Part shown: positions 42,990 to 43,525 of the stretch, in pieces | Position numbering within the stretch: the stretch's first letter is position 1 | Layout: the number at the start of each line of letters is the position of its first letter | NCBI GenBank assembly: GCA_951406725.2 | Contig: OX597824.1 | Location: 73,098,001-73,162,000, forward strand | Source: Octopus vulgaris | Lineage: Eukaryota | DNA length: 64,000 nt | Reading direction: 5' to 3' | Notes under the pieces: model-generated | Seen by the model: the letters and a program-made list of their open reading frames with translations, nothing else | What the model was told of the DNA's origin: nothing | Database searches by the model: none | Program-made: the position numbers and the translations under genes

Positions 42990-43525
42990 ATTAAAAAACA
43001 CATTAAGTACAAGACATCACCAACGAACGGAAAGCAAGTAAACACACGAGAGATAAGTACAGGACAAAGTACTAAAAAATACACAATAATAAGAACAGGA
43101 CATCAACAACGATTGATAAATATGTAAACACACGAGAGACAAGTACGGTACATAATACCAAAGAAAGTCAAACTCCTCCTCAGTTATCGACTGTTTATTA
43201 CTCCCTATTTCGAGCTAAGCCCTAACTCACCACAAATTTTATATTTTTAATATTTCTAGATGCTGCTGTCTTATGAAGTTTTCCTATATTGTCGTTGAAA
43301 GCTCGAAATAGATAGTAATAAACAGTCGACAACTGAGGAGGACTTAGACTTCTTGTGCTATTTTGTCCCGACTTGTTTCTCGTTATGTGTTTACGTATTT
43401 TTCACTTGTTGTTGATGTCCTATTCTTATTGCGTATTTTTTGATATTTTGTCCTGTACTTATCTCTCGTGTGTTTACGTGTTTTTCCGCTCGTTGGTGAT
43501 GTCCTGTACTTAAAGTGTATTTTTC
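42990..43525. repeat. Diverged inverted repeat (arms about 225 bp, spacer about 85 bp)
   Basis: 42990-43216 is the reverse complement of 43300-43525; both arms contain GAAA...CTGAGGA. Confidence 0.85.

Follow-up and report, generated by a model that had tools for sequence, protein, structure and literature searches.

Eckert et al. (2023; PMC10085705) described hammerhead ribozymes by three blocks, S, C and G, types I, II and III having the orders CGS, GSC and SCG. Non-circularly permuted RNAs were first described in 2023, in the same paper, from environmental contigs whose hosts are unknown. One of them is type SGC, which cleaves at 0.007-0.19 per minute; another, type CSG, comprises five sequences from soil DNA and cleaves at 0.004-0.026 per minute. 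In both types, helices I and II are connected at their far sides by an extra helix. Block C is assumed there to be uninterruptible, and insertions within it are known only up to 1-2 nt. In the hammerhead core, A9 and G12 make a sheared pair that adjoins G10.1-C11.1 (PMC11300833). Among Penelope-like elements, the Naiads were reported to lack a canonical hammerhead, and 10 "HHR_core" and 8 "HHR_half_core" families fit no descriptor (Craig et al. 2021; PMC8557442). Naiad insertions are 5'-truncated, are accompanied by an inverted truncated copy and show a bias toward (TA)n.

The locus studied here lies within a window of 64 kb, which is the whole stretch of DNA analyzed. It is a copy of a repeat family, termed family C, next to an inverted partner, and its features are as follows.

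43217..43535, plus strand: copy C of repeat family C, 5'-truncated, a ribozyme-like fold followed by a U-rich tail
43222..43228, plus strand: 5' strand of a predicted closing helix, P0, pairing with 43341-47 (6 of 7 pairs; 7 of 7 using the family majority letter at 43343)
43230..43259, plus strand: predicted hairpin Px between P0 and helix II (9 of 12 pairs; 11 of 12 with the majority letters, Px having been drawn after the majority letters of family C had been seen)
43259..43264, plus strand: predicted 5' strand of helix II, detached from CUGAGGA (5 of 5 pairs with 43300-04, one bulged base)
43265..43274, plus strand: 5' strand of helix P, which ties helix I to helix II (9 of 9 pairs formed with 43318-26, with one bulge)
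43280..43288, plus strand: block S, with a helix III strand, U16.1 and H17 (6 of 8 pairs; 8 of 8 with the majority letters)
43289..43294, plus strand: helix I strand after the predicted cleavage site (6 of 6 pairs with 43327-32)
43300..43315, plus strand: block G, with the helix II 3' strand (43300-04), GAAA (43305-08) and a helix III strand (43309-15)
43318..43339, plus strand: 3' strand of helix P (43318-26), a strand of helix I (43327-32) and the core CUGAGGA (43333-39)
43341..43347, plus strand: P0 3' strand (favored) or helix II 5' strand (preliminary description)
43353..43532, plus strand: tail of two units of about 85 nt in tandem, families D3-D5
42981..43216, minus strand: inverted family-C copy with a stronger 5' truncation (84% identity over 240 nt)
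42969..42985, no strand: (TA)n microsatellite ending the inverted copy

The dinucleotide U43287-A43288, GAAA and CUGAGGA follow one another in S-G-C order, and both helix I and helix III are present. In the numbering of Hertel, U16.1 is 43287 and H17 is 43288, and the core is complete (CUGANGA, GAAA, UH and U16.1-A15.1). Helix III consists of three contiguous pairs plus U16.1-A15.1, the linker between helices I and II is 5 nt long, and G10.1 is predicted at 43259. Cleavage is predicted 3' of 43288, after a triplet that reads AUA in copy C versus AUC or GUC in the family majority. The permuted hammerhead-like fold and the cleavage site proposed in the preliminary description are thus supported, the order being that of the published type SGC (PMC10085705), and the strands given there also proved correct, both for helix I and for the outer stem 43265-74/43318-26. 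Its minus-strand partner indeed holds GAAA...CUGAGGA (43177-43211); this inverted copy begins at the equivalent of 43300 and is without block S. The plus copy had been taken to start about 50 nt too far downstream; we place its start near 43217, because contigs of other family-C copies span 43222 onward. On the far side, a (TA)n/(CA)n run starts at 43578, about 40 nt past the plus arm. Types I, II and III were considered for copy C and rejected: the order is S-G-C, there is no GAAA within 38 nt past the core, and no Rfam hammerhead was found.

Two other copies with this layout lie in the window:

33929..34034, plus strand: copy B, split layout, another family (P0 9 bp, helix II 5 bp, P 5 bp, helix III 4 bp, helix I 6 bp)
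20426..20498, minus strand: copy A, 73% identical to copy B, with a perfect 5-bp upstream helix II and the core G8 changed to A

Helix I of copy A has six pairs. Relative to copy B, both partners are changed at one pair in helix I and at two in helix III. Families B and C had been called unrelated in sequence, and blastn gave no match between them at E<0.01. The 18-nt spacer from GAAA to helix I, said to be common to both, holds for copy C and is 17 nt in copy B.

A descriptor with the order S-G-C, helix I of at least 5 bp and helix III of at least 3 bp matched two sites in the 64 kb, copy B with H17 at 33971 and copy C with H17 at 43288, against a mean of 0.01-0.02 sites in dinucleotide shuffles (n=100); since the descriptor was modeled on these very sites, this null is a favorable one. 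When the outer stem was also required, 1 of 150 shuffles had one match, compared with the two observed. Shuffled sequence had been named beforehand as the control that could refute the motif, and its frequency lay far below that observed; the layout of copy C is beyond chance. Allowing one core mismatch added copy A (H17 20477, minus strand) and a site at 16160 that lies within chance, 23 of 150 shuffles having one such site. Nested folding, which is unable to model pseudoknots, gave copy C a z of −0.20 versus shuffles and recovered P0 and P only. Rfam returned no match at gathering score in the 64-kb window and, at E≤5, no ribozyme family in 42600-44000, where the matches were of microRNA type or other non-ribozyme families over the inverted arms and the microsatellite. 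ARAGORN found nothing.

To obtain the letters of the family, contigs from four runs with four species labels were placed on 43222-43545 at a likeness of at least 80%, which gave 996-1353 placed contigs per run. In the motif region, the majority differs from copy C at 43251, 43258, 43288, 43312, 43313 (45-68%) and 43343, and each of the five majority changes located inside helices creates a pair where copy C has none (Px two, helix III two, P0 one). H17 at 43288 is C in 75-78% of depth. Minor letters, counted separately, are G at 43286 (23-36%) and C at 43309 (23-49%); together they would swap an A-U pair of helix III for G-C, a two-sided change. GAAA, CUGAGGA and helix I are without change among the 40 of 76 rows listed. 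A family consensus that disrupts helix I or III had also been named as a refutation; in the rows listed it strengthens helix III and leaves helix I as it was. As the majority letters restore pairs, the fold suits family C better than it suits copy C. With five pair-breaking deviations from its family, copy C is likely a decayed member. In a read-through transcript, moreover, the upstream inverted arm would pair with 43300-43370, and these differences together with such sequestration suggest that copy C is probably inactive.

The motif pattern was matched at no fewer than 120 metagenome loci. Among the loci listed, 63 of 120 passed a helix test (helix I of at least 4 bp, helix III of at least 3 bp), and 93 of 120 belong to one family, which comes mostly from two samples and resembles Acropora tails by eye. 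From the 79 loci with the whole region among the matches listed, 44 full-length copies with intact upstream parts were aligned (A1). In these 44 copies, 94.6% of cells are paired across six helices, compared with 26-44% in slid controls, several columns being fixed by the search pattern. Between the two subfamilies of these copies, P0, P and helix I each show a single two-sided change, about three events in all, and a distal pair of helix III lacks compensation. No two-sided change was seen at the seven helix II pairs of A1 (matches listed), part of helix II being fixed by the pattern.

Several of these loci lie behind a reverse transcriptase (RT). Among the matches listed, an RT C-terminus was found on the same strand in 6 of 41 loci with at least 500 nt upstream, and on the opposite strand in none. 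The match reaches the protein end 275-335 nt before the motif in five loci and is partial in L097. The RT located before the layout in L080 and L066 has a full-length relative, the protein P0010, which is 72% identical over the query and carries an N-terminal GIY-YIG domain (residues 91-133, E 7e-4, below the Pfam cut-off), CxC, DKA and a C-terminal RT, which are the marks of Naiads given by Craig et al. Viral contigs behaved differently: a looser general pattern matched 18 loci, none of which passed the helix test, and no hit of Naiad RT queries was confirmed there. Four of the viral matches (L001, L002, L005 and L013) resemble cyclic di-GMP riboswitches rather than hammerheads.

Published Naiad consensus tails (File S5 of Craig et al., PMC8557442) were compared by eye in selected passages: ctgatga 1-58 of 62, ctgagga 25 of 25, ctgacga 23 of 23, ctgaaga 30 of 43 and ccgaaa 30 of 87. 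Words split by line ends are missed in this way, and the tally is a lower bound. The split layout is present in at least 11 of the 54 tails, in the order II-P-III-UH-I-II-GAAA-III-P-I-CUGANGA: one from a ctenophore, one from the Clytia part, three from Acropora, two from part 12, one from part 19, two from Octopus and one further tail of the cephalopod part with a degenerate helix II, the names being taken from neighboring headers or the order of the file. In the ctenophore tail, helix I is only 2 bp long. Helix II varies in its letters between families while keeping its complementarity to the upstream strand. Bases that follow the core are unpaired with the helix II strand, and in several tails they pair further upstream, as in P0. 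At least seven nematode Naiad tails have an uninterrupted order, P-I-CUGANGA-II-P-III-UC-I-II-GAAA-III. A sequence match between CSG-1 and a nematode Naiad was set aside as a wrong-strand coincidence; the topology alone agrees. In the remaining 36 of 54 tails the layout was not seen in this lower-bound tally by eye, nor was it in any of the bivalve passages returned from the file, and several arthropod tails have the core without being fitted to the layout. In parts 16-19 (arthropod by file order), several tails have a C-run before CUGANGA. One arthropod tail, in which the bases after the core pair upstream like P0 and GAAA seems to lie 5' of the cleavage site, is possibly a further strand arrangement.

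The presence of the same layout in Naiad tails supports the Penelope-like host suggested in the preliminary description. Loci were also selected by a Naiad-type RT alone. Of these 18, seven were set aside (RT end not reached, or less than 500 nt downstream), and none of the other 11 (about six families) matched the strict SGC, CSG or relaxed SGC descriptor; the relaxed scan covered 10 of the 11 plus L143, the one locus missing being L152, which has the same RT match as L151. The fold therefore marks some Naiad lineages only. The recurrence in families B and C had been called independent; it probably goes back to common ancestry in Naiad 3' ends, the sequence having turned over completely.

The 18 RT-selected loci (L139-L156) are found in records of prokaryote genomes, among them several assemblies of symbionts, and probably represent contamination by animal hosts. 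L139 is a near full-length match (residues 1-947 of P0010). L139 and L153 share a conserved, structured-looking stretch of 3' UTR about 180-330 nt past the RT match, which has no hammerhead core and no Rfam match and could be another kind of ribozyme. The only Rfam match at the RT-selected loci is a SECIS in L145 (1060-1123, plus strand, 39.3 bits, above gathering), behind a Naiad-type RT on a contig of a bacterial assembly; L145 is likely a selenoprotein Naiad present as foreign DNA.

Remnants of other elements were also observed near copy A. A GIY-YIG remnant at 19028-19315 (plus strand) matches P0010 (tblastn, E 4e-11; Pfam E 0.003, below the cut-off), and a minimal type I hammerhead-like motif at 20117-20146 (plus strand) lies about 800 nt past it, with a (TA)n run; the 30 nt of the motif are repeated at 36730-36759. 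The remnant at 19028-20146 is likely the tail of a Penelope-like element with a C-terminal endonuclease. The tail of copy A (20300-20505, minus strand) ends at a (TA)n run at about 20245-20302, so that two Penelope-like tails meet at one microsatellite in opposite orientations.

The interpretation of the fold depends on which strand makes helix II. The preliminary description used the bases after CUGAGGAG with AGCUC, which is possible only in family C; the other families examined have the partner upstream, and we consider the helix II of that description probably wrong. It is more likely that the strand 5' of GAAA pairs upstream of the cleavage site, with the bases after CUGAGGA closing P0, which would open the core between A9 and G10.1, an opening that the three-block model of Eckert et al. 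excludes. It is decidedly unlikely, in our judgment, that family C is an ordinary type SGC whose helix II is made of the five bases after CUGAGGA plus an extra G, with the upstream stems incidental. Both partners are weak in family C, and taken alone the downstream option (43300-04 with 43341-45, 5 of 5 pairs using the majority letter at 43343, −3.1 kcal/mol) is slightly better than the upstream one (43300-04 with 43259-64, one bulge, −2.1 kcal/mol); an extra base after A9 is also common among the hammerheads in File S2 of Craig et al. (PMC8557442). However, the downstream helix excludes P0, which needs the same bases, is compatible with the upstream helix II only and, with its extension (43217-29 plus downstream bases), reaches −9.8 kcal/mol using majority letters. 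A variant A at 43303 (30%) breaks a central pair of the downstream helix and suits the upstream one by shifting the bulge. A continuous block C, with the helix II strand no more than 1-2 nt after CUGANGA, is feasible in family C only: copy B has 1 bp there versus 5 bp upstream, such a strand is absent in 80 of 81 metagenome loci among the matches listed, and copy A, the 93-locus family and the published split tails are likewise without it. The upstream strand holds an equivalent position in copy A, in the family L019-L138 and in the published Naiad tails. Among the matches listed, 58 of 81 loci have an upstream partner of at least 5 bp, 54 of them sharing one offset, and one of the 81 has such a partner immediately past the core, the search zone being 35 positions upstream versus 3 downstream. 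Of the unrelated pattern matches, 14 of 45 likewise offer a 5-bp partner somewhere upstream.

That the arrangement arose by chance within a decayed AT-rich repeat is scarcely credible. The descriptor modeled on its own sites and the nested-folding score speak for such a reading, but the shuffle controls, the majority letters that restore pairs, the failure of all viral pattern matches in the helix test and the recurrence in other animals speak against it, and recurrence with changed helix letters has largely refuted it already. It has more in its favor, and is still very improbable, that the fold is active and family C is not derived from a Naiad, being instead part of some other Penelope-like clade or a non-autonomous, retrozyme-like repeat in which the fold was acquired separately. 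No sequence link between family C and a Naiad was found: patterns of family C gave no locus in metagenome contigs or in prokaryote genome contigs, its words are in no Naiad tail of File S5 as returned by word search, and the truncated copy C is without an RT match or a Naiad ORF (N-terminal GIY-YIG, CxC, DKA, C-terminal RT) in the 64-kb window searched. The window also holds a GIY-YIG remnant followed by a different, minimal-hammerhead-like motif, and the form of the insertion (5' truncation, inverted truncated copy, (TA)n) is Naiad-like without being exclusive to Naiads. Against this, the six-helix order including P0 and Px is found in Naiad tails as well, and other Penelope-like clades have canonical type I hammerheads. 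An unlikely possibility, though one to be kept in mind, is that the RNA is derived from a hammerhead, does not cleave and is kept as a folded 3'-end signal bound by the RT of the element. The link between A9 and G10.1 is broken, a state for which no tested precedent was found, and many Naiads amplify without the motif. However, CUGANGA, GAAA, UH and U16.1-A15.1 are kept from ctenophore to cephalopod while the helix letters are fully replaced, and nematode Naiads hold the uninterrupted CSG topology, which cleaves in vitro in the examples of Eckert et al.

We therefore favor, as reasonably probable, a decayed inverted double insertion, probably of a Naiad-type 3' end, that carries a scrambled S-G-C hammerhead with the core opened between A9 and G10.1 and is predicted to be self-cleaving. 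The strands of copy C stand in a fixed order, are complementary and recur with changed letters in other families. The proposed order is P0 - Px hairpin - II - P - III-UH^-I - II-GAAA-III - P - I-CUGANGA - P0. Helices I, II and III would assemble a normal hammerhead core, and helix P would replace the contact between loops I and II, as in the validated SGC and CSG ribozymes of Eckert et al. Since the A9-G12 pair lies next to G10.1-C11.1, A9 and the detached end of helix II must meet in space; P0 and, where present, Px would hold A9 beside the detached G10.1-C11.1 pair. Cleavage 3' of H17 would cut tandem element transcripts to unit lengths, and a partial tandem with two of these sites would set free unit-length RNA, a role already hypothesized for the hammerheads of other Penelope-like elements. 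With four helices (P0, II, P and III) spanning the cut, both ends would remain clamped after cleavage, and re-ligation into circles might, speculatively, be favored.

The split layout in many Naiad tails that have no standard hammerhead suggests that it is likely their missing self-cutting RNA. A wider model, in which an active permutation with a fourth cut would be the missing hammerhead of a large share of Naiads, from ctenophores and corals to cephalopods, nematode Naiads would use the CSG opening instead, and clamped ends would circularize unit-length RNAs, seems to us about evenly balanced between right and wrong. In the literature searched, with most subscription journals outside its scope, we found neither a link between permuted hammerheads and Naiads nor a core opened between A9 and G10.1; the same holds for the sections covered of a retrozyme preprint (10.64898/2026.07.22.740005), PMC13725137 and PMC4209133, and those of PMC10162972 held nothing relevant on hammerheads with extra helices. 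Permuted hammerheads are now placed in animal genomes, within high-copy retroelements with a known enzyme. This offers a testable answer to why Naiads "lack canonical HHR" and yet many hold unexplained core halves (PMC8557442). Cleavage by the split form would mean that a hammerhead core can function with its backbone broken between A9 and G10.1, that the possible orders exceed the six thought to exist, and that current descriptors and Rfam models miss many animal ribozymes.

Compared with the known systems, copy C shares with type SGC the cyclic order S, G, C, the short linker from helix I to helix II, the P helix and a full core. It differs in the position of the helix II 5' strand, which in all six orders of Eckert et al. 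comes right after CUGANGA and in copy C is predicted at the 5' end of the motif, and in the added closing helix P0; the split layout often has the hairpin Px as well. The strand order in the nematode Naiad tails is exactly that of the CSG alignment of Eckert et al., and a single cycle of strands, opened at three different places, gives SGC, CSG and the split form. The examples of Eckert et al. came from metatranscriptome and soil metagenome contigs, with no link to retroelements in the sections covered. With the Naiads of Craig et al. (PMC8557442), the insertion shares the 5' truncation, the inverted copy on the 5' side, the (TA)n targets and the position in the 3' UTR; that paper, in the parts covered, gives no structure for the core fragments, and the copy in the window is without an ORF. 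Cervera and de la Pena (2014; PMC4209133) described a minimal type I core in the pLTR of canonical Penelope-like elements, often with opposite-strand pairs 100-700 bp apart. The core of copy C resembles these hammerheads in being placed in the terminal repeat of a Penelope-like element. However, they have the order C-G-S and a tiny helix III and act as dimers, whereas copy C is pseudoknotted, its helix III is full, and it would work as a monomer.
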